NCBI GenBank assembly: GCA_934131175.1
Contig: CAKOZD010000004.1
Location: 17,507-81,506 of the forward strand
Length of the DNA: 64,000 nucleotides
Source of the DNA: an uncultured Bacilli bacterium
GTDB taxonomy: Bacteria; Bacillota_I; Bacilli_A; RF39; UBA660
Direction of reading: 5' to 3'
Shown in pieces: positions 31,738 through 46,233 of the stretch. The notes below the pieces were generated by a model. That model saw nothing but the letters and a program-made list of their open reading frames with translations. It had not been told where the DNA came from and made no database searches. Each line of letters opens with the position of its first letter. Position 1 is the first letter of the stretch. The translations under genes were made by a program, and so were the position numbers.

Positions 31738-31757
31738 AAAGTCTTAGGACTTTTTTT
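31736..31757. terminator. Bidirectional hairpin terminator between the small plus-strand gene and the histidine kinase
   Basis: aaaaagtcttaggacttttttt is a palindrome flanked by A/T runs on both strands. Confidence 0.5.
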
Positions 31758-33000
31758 CTTGCTTTATTGGTAGTGTTATTAATACCGTTGTTCCTTTATT
31801 TTCTCTTGATTTATATGATAGTGTTCCATGATGCAATTCAATTATTTCTTTTATATAAGGTATTCCTATACCTGTTCCTGTTTCTTTTGTCGTGAAAAAG
31901 TCATTATATATTTTTTCAAGTACTTCTTTAGACATACCTTTTCCATTATCTTTCATTGATATGATACAGTTATTGTTATCTTCTTTTATCTTTACATTAA
32001 CTACTAGGTCTTCCTTACGTTTTGATTCTAGTGAATTTTTAAATAAATTTATAAATACTTGTTTTAATCTATTGTAATCACCTTCTATATATATTTCATC
32101 ATCTGGTATTTCTATTTTTGCTTTATTCTTTTTAAATAGAGGTTCTAATATATCTTTAATTTCTTCTAGTAAGTAGCAAATATCTATCTCTTCTACTTCT
32201 ATATTTTTTATTTTACCAAGAGATGAGAAGTCATTAATAATAGTTAAACTTCTTTTTATTTCATTTTGCATAATTTCAATATACTTATCTTGATCTTTTT
32301 TTGAAGCTTCTGGAAACATTTCTAAATATCCATTACAAACTGCTAGTGGATTTTTTAGTTCATGATTTAATTTAAAGACTGATGCTCTTAGTTTCTTTTC
32401 TTTATCTAATTCTTTAAATGTTGTATTTATTTCTAATATTTTTTTACTCTTAGTGAAGAAGAATGATGTTAGAAATGAAAATAATGTTAAAACTATACTA
32501 CCAAATAGAATTAAGAAATGACAATGATGAGTTATATTAGGAGGTTGGATTACAGAAACCAAAACAATTGTTGCGTAGATACATTTTAATATTGAAAATG
32601 TTATAGAAAAATCTCTTATAAAATGATTCTTCTTTTCAAAAAATTTATAAGCAATATAGTAAGATATGTAAAAGAATGCTAGTAAGAATAAATTAACATC
32701 ATGAATCTTATGATATAAAATCATTAAAATAATTGAAATTATAATAGCAGTTTTATCTCTTTTTGATAAATAACTTATAAGTAGTGGCGTACTAAAAAAC
32801 ATATTTGTATTATAATTTTGTAAGTCATCAAAATACATAAGAGAAAATAGAGATACTAGTATTGCAATTGAAAAAGGTATTTTTCCTTCTTTTGCATCAA
32901 TTGATCTTATGTAAGCAATATATACTAAATATAGACATAATGGAAATAATACACTCATTCCATCTAATATAACTGTTTTTATATAACTCATAGTAATCAC
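31744..33000 (-). CDS. Sensor histidine kinase (orphan, with a multi-TM N-terminal sensor)
   Basis: Five or six N-terminal TM helices, a HisKA region, and HATPase motifs (NLFKNSLES, DNGKGMS, GTGIGIPY). No response regulator is adjacent. Confidence 0.8.
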   Translation of the reverse strand: MITMSYIKTVILDGMSVLFPLCLYLVYIAYIRSIDAKEGKIPFSIAILVSLFSLMYFDDLQNYNTNMFFSTPLLISYLSKRDKTAIIISIILMILYHKIHDVNLFLLAFFYISYYIAYKFFEKKNHFIRDFSITFSILKCIYATIVLVSVIQPPNITHHCHFLILFGSIVLTLFSFLTSFFFTKSKKILEINTTFKELDKEKKLRASVFKLNHELKNPLAVCNGYLEMFPEASKKDQDKYIEIMQNEIKRSLTIINDFSSLGKIKNIEVEEIDICYLLEEIKDILEPLFKKNKAKIEIPDDEIYIEGDYNRLKQVFINLFKNSLESKRKEDLVVNVKIKEDNNNCIISMKDNGKGMSKEVLEKIYNDFFTTKETGTGIGIPYIKEIIELHHGTLSYKSRENKGTTVLITLPIKQEKKS

Positions 33001-40670: not shown

Positions 40671-40874
40671 TTAATAATCTCTATTTCTATTAGCACGATC
40701 TCTTTTTCTAGAATTCTTGATTCCTTCTTTTTTTGCTGCTCTTCTCTTTACTCCTGGCTTATCATAAGCTTCTCTTTTTTTCCATTCTGAAGGGACACCG
40801 TCTCTTGCTACTTTTTGTTTGAACTTTCTTAGAGCTTGATCAAGATTACCTCTAACAGTTACTTTAGTTGCCAT
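40671..40874 (-). CDS. rpsU: 30S ribosomal protein S21
   Basis: MATKVTVRGNLDQALRKFKQKVARDGV...RRAAKKEG. gggagg SD. Confidence 0.9.
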   Translation of the reverse strand: MATKVTVRGNLDQALRKFKQKVARDGVPSEWKKREAYDKPGVKRRAAKKEGIKNSRKRDRANRNRDY

Positions 40875-40956
40875 CACTTTCCCTCCCTTCACTTCAACTA
40901 CAATGAATTATACCAAAAGATTTTTTCTTTTTCAACCTATTTTTTGACATTTTTTA

Positions 40957-41106
40957 TTATTTTTCAAAGAAAACATACAAATTTCTTAAAAATTTTCCAA
41001 GATAAAAGCCAGAATTAATTATAAATTTACAAATTATTGGTAAAGTTAGGATTATCAATATTATTATAGCAACACTTAAAACTATTTTTATTATTTTAGA
41101 GGACAT
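40957..41106 (-). CDS. Putative small hydrophobic immunity-like protein (49 aa) overlapping the 3' end of the second bacteriocin precursor
   Basis: ATG inside peptide B's last codons. Encodes MSSKIIKIVLSVAIIILIILTLPIICKFIINSGFYLGKFLRNLYVFFEK, one TM helix plus a basic tail. The only SD-like sequence is far away (18 nt). Confidence 0.3.
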   Translation of the reverse strand: MSSKIIKIVLSVAIIILIILTLPIICKFIINSGFYLGKFLRNLYVFFEK

Positions 41107-41261
41107 AAATTATTTTCTGCTATTCTCCTTATTCCAGACCCTAGAGAATATCCTGCATCTTGTAATATTTTAATTACATTTACAATAGCATTTATAACTG
41201 GTCCAGTTACATTTGTCCCACCTTTTATACTATCTAATTCTATTTCATTTAATTTAGTCAT
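41091..41261 (-). CDS. Double-glycine-leader bacteriocin precursor peptide B (56 aa)
   Basis: MTKLNEIELDSIKGG leader, which fits the LxxxELxxIxGG consensus. Core is TNVTGPVINAIVNVIKILQDAGYSLGSGIRRIAENNLCPLK. aaggag SD 8 nt upstream. The start overlaps the stop of peptide A (taATG). Confidence 0.6.
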   Translation of the reverse strand: MTKLNEIELDSIKGGTNVTGPVINAIVNVIKILQDAGYSLGSGIRRIAENNLCPLK

Positions 41262-41413
41262 TAACTGCACTCCTTTGGATTTGTTATTCCTTCAATTACA
41301 CCACAAATAAATATTACTAAGGCTGCTATTCCAAGACCTCCTAATACAGTTATTCCTCCACCTTTTACTTTTTCTAATTCGCCTGTAGAAAGATTTTTAA
41401 TTGTTATCACCAT
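41261..41413 (-). CDS. Double-glycine-leader bacteriocin precursor peptide A (50 aa)
   Basis: MVITIKNLSTGELEKVKGG leader (LSxxELxxVxGG). Gly-rich hydrophobic core, GITVLGGLGIAALVIFICGVIEGITNPKECS, with GxxxG-like motifs and two Cys. The start overlaps the last codons of the upstream 137-aa ORF. Confidence 0.55.
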   Translation of the reverse strand: MVITIKNLSTGELEKVKGGGITVLGGLGIAALVIFICGVIEGITNPKECS

Positions 41414-41810
41414 CCCATATCAATTTAAATATGTTTATTAAACTCTCCTTTTTATTCTTAAATACTATTTTTAATACATCATTTGTTTTAGAATTATTAA
41501 ATTTAAAACTAATTAGAACTTCATTATATTTTTCTCTACCTTTAGTTATAATTACATCGTTATCTTCAAGAATTTTATATTTTTTTAATTTATTTTCTAA
41601 ATATAGACTAGAATTTTTATATAGAATATTTTTTTCTTTTTTATTTATTATTAATAGACATATATTTTTATTAGTAACTATACAATCATATTTTTTATAA
41701 TTATATATTTTATAATTTTTAAGTACTAGAAAGAATATTATTTCCATAAGAAATACTATTAATATTAATAATTTTGGAATAGTTAAATTCTCATAACTTT
41801 TTTTGTTCAT
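41397..41810 (-). CDS. Small membrane-anchored protein (putative bacteriocin accessory or immunity component)
   Basis: N-terminal TM helix. Translationally coupled to the upstream ABC exporter (20-nt overlap) and to the downstream peptide A. Confidence 0.4.
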   Translation of the reverse strand: MNKKSYENLTIPKLLILIVFLMEIIFFLVLKNYKIYNYKKYDCIVTNKNICLLIINKKEKNILYKNSSLYLENKLKKYKILEDNDVIITKGREKYNEVLISFKFNNSKTNDVLKIVFKNKKESLINIFKLIWDGDNN

Positions 41811-43872
41811 ATATTTGTCCTTTTTCTAATTTTAATACTCTATCAAATAACTTTTTATTATTGAAGCGATGAGAAATTACAATAACTGTTTTATCTTGTA
41901 AGTATAAAAACATGGATTCTAGAATTTTCTTTTCTCTAGTTATATCAATTTGACCTAGAGCCTCATCAAAAATATAAATATTAGTTTTTCTTAATAAGTT
42001 CCTTGCAAGTATTATCCTTTGTCGTTCTCCATTACTGAAATTAAATCCATTTTCTTCAATCAACTTATTAATTCCTAAATCACTATCTTTGATAATATCA
42101 TTTATATTACAAATTTCTATTATTTTTTCTAATTCTTCTTCATTATATTCTTTGTATAAAGTAATATTATTTTTTATTGTGTCATTAAATAAATATTCTG
42201 AGCTAGTAGTATAAGTAATATTTGATCTTATGCTTTCTAAATGATAGTGATTAATATCTATACCAGCAATTTTTACGGTATCATAATTAGTTTCAATATA
42301 CTTTAAAAGCATTTTCATAAGAGTTGATTTTCCACTACCACTAGAACCACTAAGTAATATTTTTTCACCTTTTCTTATTGTTAAATTTAGATTTTTAAAA
42401 AGATACTTAGAACCATTCTTATAAGTTAAATTATTATAAATAATGTCTCCATCTAACTTATAATTTAGATAAAAATAACTATTTTTAAAATACTCTTCTT
42501 CTAATATAAATAATTCTTCTACTCTTTCTTTTGCAGATACAAAGTCAGGGTATTCTTCTATAAGAGAGAAAATACTGTAAAAATTATTTAATAAGTAATT
42601 AGTAAATGCTTGAAAAATTATTAAATTAGATAAAGTTAATTTATTTGTTATACATAAATATGTTCCTATAGAATATATAATTATTATTGATATTTCATTT
42701 AAATTATTTTTTATATTGGAAGTGATTTCCAATAGTATTTTATAAGAATTAACAGTGTTTAGAAGTGATGTGTATTTTAAATTAAACTTATCTATTAATC
42801 TTTTTTCTAAATGACTTCCTTTAATAGTGTCTACATTACTTATTCCTTCAATTAAATAGTTATTAATAATATCTTGATGTTTATTTATTTTTCTAATATA
42901 TTTCTTCTTTCTTTTTACAATAAGGGACTCAAATATTATAGTTATTATAAATATTAATATAATTATACTTGTTAGTTCTTTTGAATATTTAAATAAGATA
43001 ATAAAAAAAGTTATTATACAAAAAATATCAGTAATTAGACTTGTAAAGATATTACTTAAATAATATCTTACAGTGTTTAAGTCTTTAAATCGTGCTAGTA
43101 CTTCGCCAGATGTTCTATTTTTGTAATATAAATATGGAAGTAAAAGTATCTGCTCAAATGTTTTAGATGTCGTATTTAAATCTAATTTAGAAAACCAACT
43201 ATTTAATAATATATTTTTTAGTAGAATATTAATATTTTTAAAAATCGTAAGTATTAGTAAAATGATAGTTATATAAAGAATATTATTACTTAAACTTATA
43301 TTTATAGAGTATTCTAAAAAGTATTTAAAATTGTAAGATGTGAGTATATTTTCTATTAGATATATGATTGTTAAAAGTGTAATGGTAATGTATGTTTTTT
43401 TATTACTTTTTATACTTTCTTTTATAAGTTTTGTAATAATTTTATTTTTCTTTATTACAGGTAATGTTTTATAGGGTTTTAAGAATAAATAATTATTACT
43501 AGTTAGTAAATTAAATTCAGAAAAAGATATTATTTTCTTTCCTTTAGCAGGATCCATTATTGTTACTTTCTTACTTTTTTTATTTATTTCATATAAAACA
43601 ACAAAGTGTTGGTAATTCTTATTTACAATAAAATGAACGATACATGGTAAGTTATTTACATTTATATTTTCTATTTTTCCGCTCATTCCTTGGCTTTCAA
43701 ATCCTATAACTTTGCTTGCTTCTAATAAGTTATATAAAGTAACTCCATCTTTTGTAGTGTTTGTTAGTTCTCTTAAATATTCCTTAGATACTTCTCCTCC
43801 ATAAAATCTAATAATAGATAAGAGACAGCAAATACCACAATCTTTTATTCCGTCCTGCATGACAATTTTCAT
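41791..43872 (-). CDS. Bacteriocin-processing ABC transporter with an N-terminal C39 peptidase domain (ComA/LagD/SunT family)
   Basis: C39 motifs (DCGICCL with the catalytic Cys; HFVVL). Six-TM domain. Walker A LSGSSGSGKSTLMK, ABC signature FSNGERQR, Walker B IYIFDEALGQID. Confidence 0.9.
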   Translation of the reverse strand: MKIVMQDGIKDCGICCLLSIIRFYGGEVSKEYLRELTNTTKDGVTLYNLLEASKVIGFESQGMSGKIENINVNNLPCIVHFIVNKNYQHFVVLYEINKKSKKVTIMDPAKGKKIISFSEFNLLTSNNYLFLKPYKTLPVIKKNKIITKLIKESIKSNKKTYITITLLTIIYLIENILTSYNFKYFLEYSINISLSNNILYITIILLILTIFKNINILLKNILLNSWFSKLDLNTTSKTFEQILLLPYLYYKNRTSGEVLARFKDLNTVRYYLSNIFTSLITDIFCIITFFIILFKYSKELTSIIILIFIITIIFESLIVKRKKKYIRKINKHQDIINNYLIEGISNVDTIKGSHLEKRLIDKFNLKYTSLLNTVNSYKILLEITSNIKNNLNEISIIIIYSIGTYLCITNKLTLSNLIIFQAFTNYLLNNFYSIFSLIEEYPDFVSAKERVEELFILEEEYFKNSYFYLNYKLDGDIIYNNLTYKNGSKYLFKNLNLTIRKGEKILLSGSSGSGKSTLMKMLLKYIETNYDTVKIAGIDINHYHLESIRSNITYTTSSEYLFNDTIKNNITLYKEYNEEELEKIIEICNINDIIKDSDLGINKLIEENGFNFSNGERQRIILARNLLRKTNIYIFDEALGQIDITREKKILESMFLYLQDKTVIVISHRFNNKKLFDRVLKLEKGQIYEQKKL

Positions 43873-43926
43873 TGAGTATTACTTTCACCTCCTATCTTAT
43901 TATTCGAGGTTTTTCTAATTTTTGTG

Positions 43927-43954
43927 AAAAAAAAAGAAGAAATCTAATTTCTTC
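43927..43954 (-). terminator. Hairpin + U-tract between the ITPase-like gene and the bacteriocin exporter (terminator, or a leader attenuator)
   Basis: gaagaaatctaatttcttc stem-loop with a run of 9 U on the minus strand. A TTGACA/TATAAT-like pair lies just upstream on the minus strand. Confidence 0.5.
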
Positions 43955-44045
43955 CTAGATAAATTATAAATCTTTGTCAACGCGTGATAAAAAGATAAAG
44001 ATTCTTTTGATTAAGAAATTAATCTAAAATACACAATTTATCCAT

Positions 44046-44684
44046 TTACATCATATCATCTTTTTTAGTTTTTGCAAAGACTTTTTTTGTTTGTTTTGAA
44101 TTTTTATTTTTTGTTGACACATACCATGTCATAAATTGACTAAATGCTGAGTTTATTTTTTTATTTCTTAATTCTCTTTCTTCATCAGTCATTTCTGCTA
44201 GTGTCTTAGTAAAACCTTCTGGAATGAAGACTTCCCATAATCTAGATCTTGCTTTTTCTGGTAGTAGGCCTTTCTTTTCTTTTGATAGGATACCTTTTGA
44301 GTAAGATAAAAATTGTTTATACTCTACTCCATCATAATATGTTACACAACTTGCAAAGTAACAATTTCTATTTTCAACATCTTTCATTACTTCAAGTAGT
44401 TCTTCTATATTTGTACTTATTCCACTTCTTTTAACAAGAGTACCTGGGTAATCTGTTTTTCCAGGATATCCTTCAATATAGAATCCACTGTCTTCTACAA
44501 AACATGGTCCATGTACGATGTTGTATGCTTTTTTTGCTTTATCTTTTGATACTTCTTCTACTTTATTTATTTCTAATTCATCGATATCTTTATTTACTTC
44601 AATTACATCAACATCATATATTTTACATAATTCTTCTACTCGCTTAAATTTACCTTTATTCGTTGTTATATAATATAAACACAT
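44046..44684 (-). CDS. Putative non-canonical NTP pyrophosphatase-like (Ham1/ITPase-like) protein. Assignment is weak.
   Basis: N-terminal ITTNKGKFKRVEEL and FVEDSGF...GYPG resemble Ham1/RdgB motifs, but the C-terminal motifs are divergent. Confidence 0.35.
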   Translation of the reverse strand: MCLYYITTNKGKFKRVEELCKIYDVDVIEVNKDIDELEINKVEEVSKDKAKKAYNIVHGPCFVEDSGFYIEGYPGKTDYPGTLVKRSGISTNIEELLEVMKDVENRNCYFASCVTYYDGVEYKQFLSYSKGILSKEKKGLLPEKARSRLWEVFIPEGFTKTLAEMTDEERELRNKKINSAFSQFMTWYVSTKNKNSKQTKKVFAKTKKDDMM

Positions 44685-44751
44685 AAAATCACCTCTAAAT
44701 GTATTCTATTATATATAGAGGCAATATATATGTCACTATTTAATTTTATAA

Positions 44752-44780
44752 AAAATAAAAACGTTGAATTAATCAACGTT
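44752..44780 (-). terminator. Terminator downstream of tRNA-Ala
   Basis: aacgttga-attaa-tcaacgtt palindrome, followed on the minus strand by tttttatttttt. Confidence 0.55.
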
Positions 44781-44791
44781 GAATATCAATA

Positions 44792-44867
44792 TGGTGGAGC
44801 ATAGCGGGATCGAACCGCTGACCTCCACGGTGCAAACGTGGCGCTCTCCCAGCTGAGCTAATGCCCC
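44792..44867 (-). tRNA. tRNA-Ala (anticodon TGC)
   Basis: Minus-strand sequence GGGGCATTAGCTCAGCTGGGAGAGCGCCACGTTTGCACCGTGGAGGTCAGCGGTTCGATCCCGCTATGCTCCACCA. Cloverleaf with G3:U70, a TGC anticodon, and a CCA end. Confidence 0.9.
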
Positions 44868-44933: not shown

Positions 44934-45686
44934 TCAACGATTTTTGTAAAAAAAATTATATTTTTTTTCTAAAGCTTCTTTTTCAGTATAAAAAGTACCA
45001 TTTTCTTTATAAATATTCTCTTTATTTTTATAGAAGTTATTAATATTATAAATTATTTTTTTATTCTTAAAGTGATATTTATTTAAAAATCTTTCTAATA
45101 AAAATTTATTATATACATAATCTATTTTATTTTCTTCTTTATGAATTACTGCTAATAGGAATAATAACATTACTAAAATATTAATTGTAATATTTTTTTG
45201 AATTATAAAAATTATAAATACTAATAAATAACTAATCTTAATGATTAATTTTAATGTTTTCTTATATGGTAGAAAGTTATTTATAAATAAGTTTAATAGT
45301 TTTCCTCCATCTAATGGATATATTGGTAATAAGTTAAATACTAAAAGAGATATGTGATAAATTAATATTAATTCTTTATCATAAGGAAATAAATAAATTA
45401 AAATAAAGTAAGCAAGATTTTGAAATGAAGGACCTGCTATTAGTATTAAAAACTCAACAGTATTTTTTGTATTTAATGGCATATTAAATTTAGTTATTCC
45501 ACCTAGTGGATAAATATATATTTTTTTTACATCTACTTTTAATAATTTTGCGACTAAGAAATGACCTAATTCATGAATTATGATTATTATATTTAATATT
45601 AAATATTCTTTAAATGAACCTATTAATATCGCAATTATTCCTAAGATATAAACTAATATGTTTACTTTAAATATATTTTTTATAAT
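44934..45686 (-). CDS. M50-family site-2 protease (SpoIVFB-like), with the N-terminal HExxH segment in an ORF lacking an ATG/GTG/TTG start
   Basis: The in-frame extension upstream of the track ORF encodes a TM helix with IIIHELGHFLVAKLL (HExxH). The track ORF supplies NLLPIYPLDGG (LDG motif). The frame opens at an ATT codon 9 nt after a GGAG, immediately after a TAG, and overlaps the upstream gene's end. Confidence 0.55.
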   Translation of the reverse strand: MIKNIFKVNILVYILGIIAILIGSFKEYLILNIIIIIHELGHFLVAKLLKVDVKKIYIYPLGGITKFNMPLNTKNTVEFLILIAGPSFQNLAYFILIYLFPYDKELILIYHISLLVFNLLPIYPLDGGKLLNLFINNFLPYKKTLKLIIKISYLLVFIIFIIQKNITINILVMLLFLLAVIHKEENKIDYVYNKFLLERFLNKYHFKNKKIIYNINNFYKNKENIYKENGTFYTEKEALEKKYNFFYKNR

Positions 45687-46233
45687 CTAATTGTTCTCCA
45701 TTCTTTTCAAATTTTAAATATAATTCATTTGATTTTACTTCTCCTAACACTTGTCCTTTTTCTACATAATCATATAGTTTGTAATTACTTATATTTACAT
45801 TTATATAATAAGTATCAACTCCATCTACTTGTTCTACAATAATTGTTTGCATATTATCTTTTACTCCACTGTAGACAATTATTCCACTTTCTAATATTGG
45901 TACTAAATAATTATTATCTACTATTAGTTTTACTCCATTATTATAATTAGATGACTTTTTATAAGATAATTTTTCACTAAATACCGGTGTTTCTTCTTTT
46001 ACTACTTTATCTAGAGATAAAATCTTACCGAAATACTTCTCATAAATACTTTTTGTTTTAGTAAACTTTATATTTTTTTCGTATACTTCTTTTTCTATAT
46101 CTTTCTTTAGAGTGGGATTTTTCTTTGTTACTATTAATCCTATTAGAAATATTATAATTAAAATAAATAATTTACTTAAAAATATCTTTATACTTTTCTT
46201 TAATACTAATTTTTCTTCTATTCTTTTATTCAT
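45667..46233 (-). CDS. Membrane protein with a degenerate LytM/M23-like C-terminal domain (SpoIVFA-like)
   Basis: N-terminal TM helix. C-terminal GIIVYSG...YINVNISNYKLYDYVEKGQVLGEV follows the M23 fold pattern without the catalytic His residues. It sits directly upstream of, and overlaps, the M50 protease, as spoIVFA does with spoIVFB. Confidence 0.45.
   Translation of the reverse strand: MNKRIEEKLVLKKSIKIFLSKLFILIIIFLIGLIVTKKNPTLKKDIEKEVYEKNIKFTKTKSIYEKYFGKILSLDKVVKEETPVFSEKLSYKKSSNYNNGVKLIVDNNYLVPILESGIIVYSGVKDNMQTIIVEQVDGVDTYYINVNISNYKLYDYVEKGQVLGEVKSNELYLKFEKNGEQLDYKKYI

Follow-up and report, generated by a model that had tools for sequence, protein, structure and literature searches.

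Bacteriocin loci are normally patchy, strain-specific and fast-evolving. What, then, is the role of a two-peptide export operon that keeps one chromosomal place, beside the ribosomal protein gene rpsU, in at least 63 species of uncultured gut and rumen bacteria? The question is raised by a 64-kb stretch of DNA from an uncultured Bacilli bacterium (contig CAKOZD010000004.1, positions 17,507 to 81,506), which was analysed at its full length and is called the window here. At 40957–43872, on the minus strand, it carries genes for a C39-peptidase ATP-binding cassette (ABC) exporter, a 137-aa accessory protein, two peptides with double-glycine (GG) leaders, named A and B, and a 49-aa protein with a single transmembrane (TM) segment. 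Comparison across species indicates that this operon is very probably ancestral in its clade. It also revealed a structured RNA upstream of the exporter gene. The peptides probably form a membrane-active pair.

In the direction of transcription, the operon consists of the exporter gene (41791..43872, 693 aa), the gene for the 137-aa protein (41397..41810), the peptide A precursor (41261..41413, 50 aa), the peptide B precursor (41091..41261, 56 aa) and the 49-aa open reading frame (ORF; 40957..41106). A preliminary description of this DNA had proposed a complete bacteriocin-type export and immunity operon in this gene order, tightly coupled through overlaps of 1–20 nt. All five overlapping minus-strand ORFs were found, in the ORF list and in the sequence, at the positions that it had given, and the gene set matches the proposal, the immunity-like part being assigned by architecture. 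The measured overlaps are 20, 17, 1 and 16 nt, and all five genes are translationally coupled. The listed start of peptide B is a GTG at 41270, which would make the A/B overlap 10 nt. Comparative data favour the ATG at 41261, which gives the 56-aa precursor.

Inheritance of the operon

A scan with YqeY, using one genome per bacterial species, yielded 80 loci, all from uncultured gut or rumen metagenome-assembled genomes (MAGs) labelled as Bacilli, Mollicutes, Erysipelotrichaceae or Tenericutes. A tblastn search with the window proteins revealed the order exporter, 137-aa protein, A, B, (49-aa ORF), rpsU in 63 of these 80 loci, about 71 of the 80 being informative. Three of the remaining loci are cut by contig ends or disrupted, one holds the peptides only, and nine are uninformative because of contig ends. 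The operon is absent from four loci with enough upstream sequence, namely L025, L079, L088 (Clostridium sp. CAG:710) and L089. Among the 63 operon-bearing species, the identity of YqeY to that of the window falls as low as 68%. Through homologues of the 137-aa protein, contigs of a divergent lineage were reached (44% identity), in which the same order is found from tRNA-Ala to rpsU, with no ITPase gene. The operon adjoins rpsU even where kilobases part rpsU from yqeY.

According to the preliminary description, the block lay between a tRNA-Ala gene and the rpsU-yqeY unit and was an acquired island. The placement holds on the rpsU/yqeY side. On the tRNA side, a Ham1/ITPase-like gene intervenes (44046..44684, minus strand; Pfam Ham1p_like, 3.7e-21), which is variable cargo. 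The tRNA-Ala(tgc) gene (44792..44867, minus strand; ARAGORN; Rfam tRNA, 64 bits) marks the upstream edge of this variable segment and is outside the operon. Across species, the exporter gene is preceded, at 0.1–5 kb, by a tRNA-Ala gene (near subclade) or a tRNA-Arg gene (far subclade), and therefore variable cargo lies between tRNA and operon. Only 6 of about 63 species have the ITPase gene here, and in relatives rpsU adjoins the operon instead of the tRNA or the ITPase gene.

A recent integration at a tRNA-Ala hotspot beside rpsU would account for the tRNA upstream, for the strain-level variation in gene content beside it, and for the total GC of the exporter gene (0.208) and of the 137-aa gene (0.150), both at the low end for the window. 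However, the variable DNA lies between tRNA and operon and does not surround the operon, which occupies the identical place in 63 species-level genomes. The GC content at third codon positions (GC3) of the operon genes, 0.07–0.14, is within the window range (mean 0.12 +/- 0.024) and thus unshifted, and low total GC is common to other membrane genes. A dip in GC and GC skew over the exporter gene, considered as a sign of an island, is explained by membrane-protein composition. No att-like direct repeats flank the operon, and no integrase is found at it in the window. Pairwise ratios of nonsynonymous to synonymous divergence (dN/dS) are about 0.15 for the exporter, 0.35 for the 137-aa protein, 0.19 for A, 0.2 for B and 0.5 for the 49-aa ORF, similar to those of the neighbouring core genes yqfD (about 0.2) and yqeY (0.09). 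All operon genes evolve under purifying selection. Synteny in 63 species, where the same genes appear as ancestral core content, together with the unshifted GC3, the lack of att repeats and the purifying selection, refutes the acquired island, and recent acquisition is highly improbable. The operon is very probably ancestral. It would then have descended vertically in a clade of uncultured, very AT-rich Bacilli of gut and rumen and belong to their core genome. A complete two-peptide export system that is core-like in at least 63 species of these uncultured, reduced-genome organisms points to a function that is hard for them to lose.

Local differences are found around this operon. In L007 and L008, which represent the window's own species (95–100% protein identity), the tRNA and the ITPase gene are separated by three additional genes (L007:5078-7127), encoding a 229-aa HTH_19/HTH_3 protein and proteins of 225 aa and 154 aa. 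All three are missing from the window (44684-44792). The junction between operon and rpsU is not absolutely fixed either, as inserted genes separate the peptide genes from rpsU in a few species. In L015 (1658-4065), the insertion before rpsU encodes two paralogues of about 400 aa that have a TM segment at the N-terminus, and in L030 (7375-8606), proteins of 223 aa and 146 aa.

Gene products and the role of the peptide pair

The exporter has the domains of a peptidase-containing ABC transporter (PCAT), a C39 peptidase, a six-TM domain and a nucleotide-binding domain. It scores above the Pfam cut-offs for Peptidase_C39 (9.1e-32), ABC_membrane and ABC_tran, and aligns end to end both with PCAT1 (PDB 4RY2; 2.3e-77) and with ComA (PDB 8HF7; 3.8e-69). 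The alignment to PCAT1 covers the DCG...C motif of the catalytic Cys, the HFVV motif of the His, Walker A (GSSGSGKST) and Walker B (IYIFDEA), and the aligned residues confirm the earlier statement that the catalytic Cys and His and both Walker motifs are intact. Judged by these motifs, the protein is a full PCAT with intact catalytic and ATPase sites. It is under the cut-off of NCBIfam TIGR01193 ("peptide cleavage/export ABC transporter"), at 312.8 against 523.85 bits. Because it lies below NCBIfam family cut-offs, it represents a divergent, lineage-specific PCAT branch. The exporter is full-length (683–708 aa) in most of the 63 species, and the DCG[IV]C motif is kept in those whose exporter N-terminus was recovered. 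It is shorter or frameshifted in L001/L002 and L083, and contig ends truncate a few others.

In L001 (3909-5988, a JGI contig) and L002 (an ENA contig, the same one as L094), a frameshift splits the exporter into ORFs of 223 aa and 400 aa, while the gene is continuous in L003 of the same lineage. Either strain pseudogenisation or a homopolymer assembly error could be the cause. Recoding of TGA in some exporter homologues was also considered and rejected, the apparent in-frame stops being tblastn overruns beyond the true stop codon. The start codon of the exporter gene is ATG in the window (43870-43872) and GTG in about half of the species with an assignable start, most of these being of the near subclade. 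In every case, the extended Shine-Dalgarno sequence (SD) TAGGAGGTGA and a conserved box, cGAATAATA, lie ahead of it.

The 137-aa protein has no match in Pfam or NCBIfam, and none to HlyD-family models, and its family profile has no sequence match in the PDB. A weak match to PAS_12 (E 0.007) was set aside. A word-indexed search found 9 and then 30 relatives, and an exhaustive profile search found 431 cluster representatives, of which the best 150 are 94–149 aa long, mostly about 135. Like the 49-aa protein, it contains one strongly hydrophobic segment. The AlphaFold2 (AF2) model (mean predicted local distance difference test, pLDDT, 86) places a TM helix at residues 5–32, followed by a small, presumably extracytoplasmic beta-barrel with one internal and one C-terminal helix. 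The model comes closest to the beta-barrel of membrane fusion proteins (MFPs), though Foldseek gave nothing significant. With moderate confidence, we propose from this model that the protein is a minimal one-domain MFP-like adaptor for the exporter. The preliminary suggestion of a new accessory component fits such an unannotated family. This candidate adaptor family for peptidase-ABC exporters, with its 431 clusters, is not described in databases.

Peptide A could be extracted from 62 species and peptide B from 68. In the window, the precursor of A consists of a 19-aa GG leader and a 31-aa, very hydrophobic mature part with a net charge of -1, and that of B of a 15-aa GG leader and a 41-aa, amphipathic mature part with a net charge of +2. 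Leaders are 13–22 residues long across species and end in GG in 58 of 62 cases for A and 66 of 68 for B, with SG/NG or AG in the remainder. The mature consensus is xxxWxGxxIAAxVVFLSGVIEGITNPxRC for A and TxISGxIINAxVNxIKxLxDAGYSLGSGIRRIxExNLCPLx for B. Each thus includes a GxxxG motif across species, G-V-I-E-G in A and G-Y-S-L-G in B. A also has the segment ITNP, and B an invariant RR and C-P-L. Each peptide has one invariant Cys, 2–7 residues from the C-terminus (for A in 62/62 species), through which an inter-peptide disulfide is possible. The AF2 model of B, of low confidence, has a helix at residues 20–49, and comparison of B with the PDB gave noise only. The family of B comprises 508 clusters. 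The best 120 of these 508 are mostly 56–58 aa long and come from metagenomes and MAGs, and one of them is called "bacteriocin" by NCBI.

The conserved gene for peptide A doubles as an attachment site. In two species, an element with a 560-aa large serine recombinase is inserted in the codons for IEG|ITNP, equivalent to about 41275-41290 of the window. The left junction is seen in L003 (2392-2540), where identity to the intact L001 stops after ...TTAATAGAAGG and foreign DNA with an HTH_36 gene follows. At the right junction, in L056 (2027-3760), the recombinase gene ends in ...GATGAGGG|GGATTACTAATCC..., the latter being the 3' end of peptide A, and beyond it peptide B, the 49-aa ORF and rpsU are intact. 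The two junctions differ in position by no more than a nucleotide or two and fall in the codons EG|IT. The serine-recombinase element, which splits the operon, may be a switch of the active-lysogeny type.

A homologous single-TM ORF follows peptide B in about 50 of 69 species, with the consensus MS.(K/R)I...TM...G.Y.G.FLRNLYFF, of which the C-terminal G.FLRNLYFF is kept. As had been noted for the window, its ATG lies inside the last codons of B, and the comparison bears out both this arrangement and the conservation of the frame. The overlap is 16 nt wherever it was measured (about 40 species). The ATG is formed by the Leu-Cys codons of B in the window, and across species by the Leu/Ile-Cys codons of the invariant LCPL of B, with the next residue (S or P) set by the Cys-Pro codons.

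In class IIb bacteriocin systems, two adjacent peptide genes encode 15–30-residue double-glycine leaders, and GxxxG (or AxxxA/SxxxS) motifs mediate helix-helix contacts (PMC2850506). Such loci contain at least five genes, for two peptides, immunity, a C39-ABC exporter and an accessory protein (PMC6957408; PMC2850506). The window operon has adjacent genes for GG-leader peptides, GxxxG in both of them, a C39-ABC exporter and an accessory protein. For immunity, there is the 49-aa single-TM ORF coupled to B, present in about 50 of the 69 species and missing in about 20. By this analogy, the locus probably produces a two-peptide system that acts on membranes as class IIb bacteriocins do. Leader-type matches to bacteriocin models, below threshold, and the single NCBI name "bacteriocin" in the family of B point the same way. 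The C39 domain would cleave both precursors after GG and the ABC half would export them. The 137-aa protein, with one TM anchor and a small MFP-type barrel, would serve the exporter as a minimal adaptor at its outer face. Mature A, a hydrophobic helix of 31 aa, and mature B, an amphipathic cationic helix of 41 aa, would then pair via GxxxG into a membrane-active heterodimer, possibly locked by the disulfide mentioned above. The 49-aa protein would be the cognate protection factor where it is present.

Several observations weigh against this assignment. Antimicrobial action is a prediction from the architecture, and near-universal conservation at a fixed locus is atypical for a toxic, competition-driven bacteriocin, as is an uncharged or anionic peptide A. 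The mature parts are better conserved than the leaders, with mean pairwise identities of 0.51 (leader 0.41) for A and 0.55 (leader 0.44) for B. Peptide A is just under the cut-off of TIGR03949 (lactobin A/cerein 7B; 20.5 against 21.5 bits), and peptide B is under that of PF10439 (13.9 against 27.1). No curated bacteriocin family cut-off is reached among TIGR03949, NF038034 (lactococcin G-beta) and PF10439, and the homologues give sub-threshold, leader-type matches. The anoxic habitat of these organisms weighs against the proposed disulfide. Furthermore, the 49-aa ORF is deleted in about 20 species of several subclades, in which the spacer from B to rpsU is about 100 nt shorter and both peptides are intact. 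This repeated loss argues that protection does not depend on the 49-aa ORF alone, or that the peptides do not harm their producer.

Some of these features would be expected if the heterodimer, secreted or inserted in the membrane throughout the lineage, were directed at the producing population itself, in kin fratricide or cannibalism, in developmental or sporulation-linked signalling, or in modulation of the cell's own membrane. The two-peptide CibAB/CibC system of Streptococcus pneumoniae is conserved and acts on siblings. Core-like conservation with purifying selection is consistent with such a role, and so are the better conserved mature parts, the invariant Cys in A and in B, the non-cationic peptide A, an immunity-like ORF that about 20 species can dispense with, and the sporulation-type genes that flank the operon (an M23/M50 peptidase pair and yqfC/yqfD). 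On the other hand, no receptor, kinase or regulator is encoded beside the operon, both the architecture and the GxxxG motifs correspond exactly to those of class IIb peptides, which permeabilise membranes, and conserved bacteriocins exist. We consider a self-directed role possible, though rather unlikely.

That the peptides are double-glycine quorum-sensing pheromones of the ComC, BlpC or PlnA type is very unlikely. Mature peptides of 31 and 41 aa, one of them a hydrophobic TM-like helix, differ from the known pheromones, which are short and unstructured, and no HPK10-type kinase or response regulator is encoded within 8 kb. The GG leaders and a PCAT that resembles ComA are what a pheromone system would have, and some homologues of peptide B weakly match ComC or pheromone models, but these matches are driven by the leader and are under the cut-offs. 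The preliminary description had remarked on the lack of a nearby module of histidine kinase, response regulator and inducer peptide, and rightly so, since the nearest and only kinase is an orphan of the HisKA type 8 kb away. This kinase (31744-33000, 418 aa, HisKA and HATPase_c) is located downstream of the operon, has no adjoining response regulator and is syntenic in relatives.

The structured RNA and expression of the operon

Alignment of the regions upstream of the exporter gene across species revealed a structured RNA, a three-way junction of about 90 nt. In the window it is located at 43955..44045 on the minus strand, where the covariance model (CM) R3 matches with 38 bits (E 0.0034). 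The long-range helix P1 pairs 44044-44032 with 43968-43956 and has its 5' strand at the start of the transcript. It encloses the P2 hairpin (44024-44009), with a U-rich 3' strand, and P3 (about 44003-43969), with a loop of 11–13 nt that contains the invariant UCACGCG at 43987-43981. TCACGCG is unique in the 64-kb window. Directly after P1 lies an intrinsic terminator, GGAAGAAAT-TAG-ATTTCTTC followed by U9 (43927..43955, minus strand), which was read from the sequence. The consensus scan skipped this terminator because its stem has fewer than three G-C pairs. In all 31 species folded (31/31), a terminator hairpin with a U-run begins 0–6 nt past P1. A promoter-like site, TTTGCA-17-TG-TATGAT (44050..44078, minus strand; 9/12 with TG in the consensus scan), falls within the 3' end of the Ham1 ORF. 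Its counterpart in other species, TTGnnn-17-TGnTAAAAT, aligns about 7 nt ahead of the 5' strand of P1.

The sequences of P1 are unrelated between species, yet the pairing is kept, as in TGGGATAAAT/ATTTATCCCA, TTTAGAGGTTGT/ACAACCTCTAAA, AACAGATTTCGT/ACGAAATTTGTT, TAGATAACTAT/ATAGTTATCTA and GTAGGAAG/CTTCCTAC. For P1, shuffling each sequence yields a mean z of 2.66, and 23 of 32 sequences reach p <= 0.05. Minimum free energy folds of single sequences give the same three-way junction, and from a plain MAFFT alignment RNAalifold also obtains P1, 7/7 of its pairs showing compensatory changes. Covariance models built from a 10-sequence seed in two iterations found 36 copies, and four more with filters off, all upstream of the exporter gene and on its strand. 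The CM alignment is model-fitted. In it, the share of paired cells is 88.9% (78.4% in shuffles), and two-sided changes occur in 14 of 19 pairs (8.1 expected) and 57 cells (14.1 expected); independent support comes from the P1 pairing across species and from RNAalifold with MAFFT. The observed covariation values exceed those of all 500 shuffles (0/500), and slid controls pair at 36–59%.

Away from this position, the CM matched nothing in the 1.37 Mb of loci or in the window. When metagenomes were scanned with the P3 motif, 13 loci came up. Ten of them carry this RNA before the exporter gene; the CM confirms nine of these, and the remaining one duplicates L002. The other three (L098-L100) are motif matches outside the operon, which were dismissed as chance, located inside coding DNA of unrelated organisms and without a CM match. 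Even with filters off, the CM missed the most divergent copies (L043, L047, L049, L066 and L060), which were recognised by manual inspection. The RNA is present in about 37 of the 63 species, and absent or reduced in about 25 that keep the operon. No match was found among the 4227 families of Rfam 15, at E <= 1 for the window copy and at E <= 5 for six further copies, and no literature was found on this operon or RNA. The structured RNA is a new finding, without an Rfam class.

Between the RNA and the exporter gene lies a putative promoter of the operon (43885..43928, minus strand), TTCACA-18-AATAAT (43928-43899; consensus scan 10/12) with the strong SD TAGGAGGTGA (43894-43885). The arrangement TTGnAC-18-(G)AATAAT(A)-TAGGAGGTGA is kept in nearly all species, including several without the RNA, in which a tRNA or a coding gene lies directly upstream of the operon promoter. 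Most likely, the operon is transcribed from this promoter, which overlaps the U-tract of the upstream terminator. In about 37 of the 63 species, that terminator would end a structured RNA of about 115–130 nt, with P1, P2, P3 and the loop UCACGCG.

Two roles can be weighed for this RNA. It could be a cis-acting riboswitch or attenuator, the operon being read from the RNA promoter and a ligand or protein at the junction switching the terminator, in place of a histidine kinase and response regulator. The strong covariation and the aptamer-like form of the RNA, a P1-closed three-way junction with an invariant loop and a terminator at once after it, are in line with an attenuator. So is its position, always 100–150 nt ahead of the exporter start on the same strand, with no copy elsewhere in the 1.37 Mb of loci, the window or the metagenome matches. 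An attenuator should also have an alternative pairing, but none is conserved between the RNA interior and the 5' strand of the terminator, with a mean z of -0.15 and 1/31 at p < 0.05 in a duplex test of one simple model. Moreover, the conserved -35/-10 pair between terminator and SD persists in several RNA-less species, and therefore the operon needs no read-through. About 25 species keep the operon with the RNA absent or reduced, and no Rfam class matches. An attenuator is therefore a rather doubtful explanation, and we slightly favour a separate small transcript that would be functionally tied to the operon. The link between RNA and operon is positional only, with no antiterminator and no pairing with the exporter start detected, which weighs against such a tie. 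No significant pairing with the exporter translation start and no target complementary to the invariant loop within the window were found, which is evidence against a simple antisense small RNA (sRNA). If the tie is real, the operon-specific RNA may account for the regulation of a class II locus that has no kinase/regulator module.

The most far-reaching combination of these elements would be a self-directed heterodimer, for instance in kin-directed killing or developmental signalling, linked through the C-terminal Cys residues, inherited clade-wide, exported by a PCAT with a new one-domain adaptor, and with its expression tied to an undescribed class of RNA, either a leader that responds to a ligand or protein or a dedicated sRNA. 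As a whole, this combination is put forward tentatively and is improbable rather than probable.

Neighbouring genes and known systems

The rpsU gene (40671-40874) follows the operon and is itself followed by yqeY, yqfC (YabP family) and yqfD. It has its own promoter directly after the operon, TTGAAA-17-TG-TATAAT (40907..40935, minus strand; consensus scan 11/12), which is kept in every species examined. No terminator is found between the operon end and this promoter. The synonymous divergence (dS) of rpsU between species pairs is 0.02–0.48, typically 3–10 times below that of adjacent genes (0.5–1.5), and its promoter and 5' untranslated region (gTTGAAAA-17-TGnTATAAT...GAAGGGAGGGA) are almost invariant clade-wide. 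This suggests strong constraint at the codon or RNA level. Upstream of the tRNA, at 44934-46233, lies a pair of genes for an M23 peptidase and an M50 peptidase, which presumably resembles the spoIVFA/spoIVFB arrangement of Bacillus. Together with yqfC/yqfD, the pair suggests that this reduced-genome lineage retains sporulation-type genes.

The exporter resembles PCAT1 of Clostridium thermocellum (4RY2) and ComA of Streptococcus (8HF7) in the C39 Cys and His, the six-TM domain, Walker A and B and the signature motif. In contrast to these, it is paired with the 137-aa accessory protein and not with one of ComB/HlyD size. Accessory proteins of that size have about 450 aa. Compared with MFPs and periplasmic adaptors (HlyD/MacA/AcrA, and Spr0693 of S. 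pneumoniae) and with the LcnD/ComB type, the window protein has only 137 aa. It lacks lipoyl, alpha-hairpin and membrane-proximal domains, is not similar in sequence to any Pfam, NCBIfam or PDB entry, and belongs to an unannotated family of its own 431 clusters. Terminator-coupled leader RNAs (riboswitches) and small sRNAs of Firmicutes that end in a terminator have several traits in common with the RNA: a promoter, a junction of several stems that a 5'/3' helix closes, an invariant loop, and an intrinsic terminator immediately before a gene on the same strand. It differs from them in having no Rfam match, no detectable antiterminator and a separate downstream operon promoter, and in occurring only with a peptide-exporter operon.

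The closest relatives in gene content are the class IIb loci, among which brochocin-C forms a further cluster. Like lactococcin G (lagA-D) and carnobacteriocin XY, the window operon has two adjacent GG peptides with GxxxG in both, a small TM gene downstream, an exporter and an accessory protein. CbnZ of carnobacteriocin XY, an immunity protein of 42 residues with a single TM domain, is a precedent for the size of the 49-aa protein (PMC6957408). Unlike in these loci, the operon occupies a fixed chromosomal locus in at least 63 species under purifying selection, its mature peptides are more conserved than their leaders, and peptide A is uncharged or anionic. Furthermore, both peptides stay below the curated family cut-offs, about 20 species have lost the immunity-like gene, and there is no three-component regulator. 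One invariant Cys in each peptide suggests an inter-peptide disulfide, and if A and B are so linked, they may be the first disulfide-linked heterodimer of the class IIb type. Databases do not describe such a Cys-containing pair. The window locus differs from known systems in being core-like and slow-evolving, with conserved, Cys-containing mature peptides, a new adaptor family, a dispensable immunity-like ORF and an operon-specific RNA.

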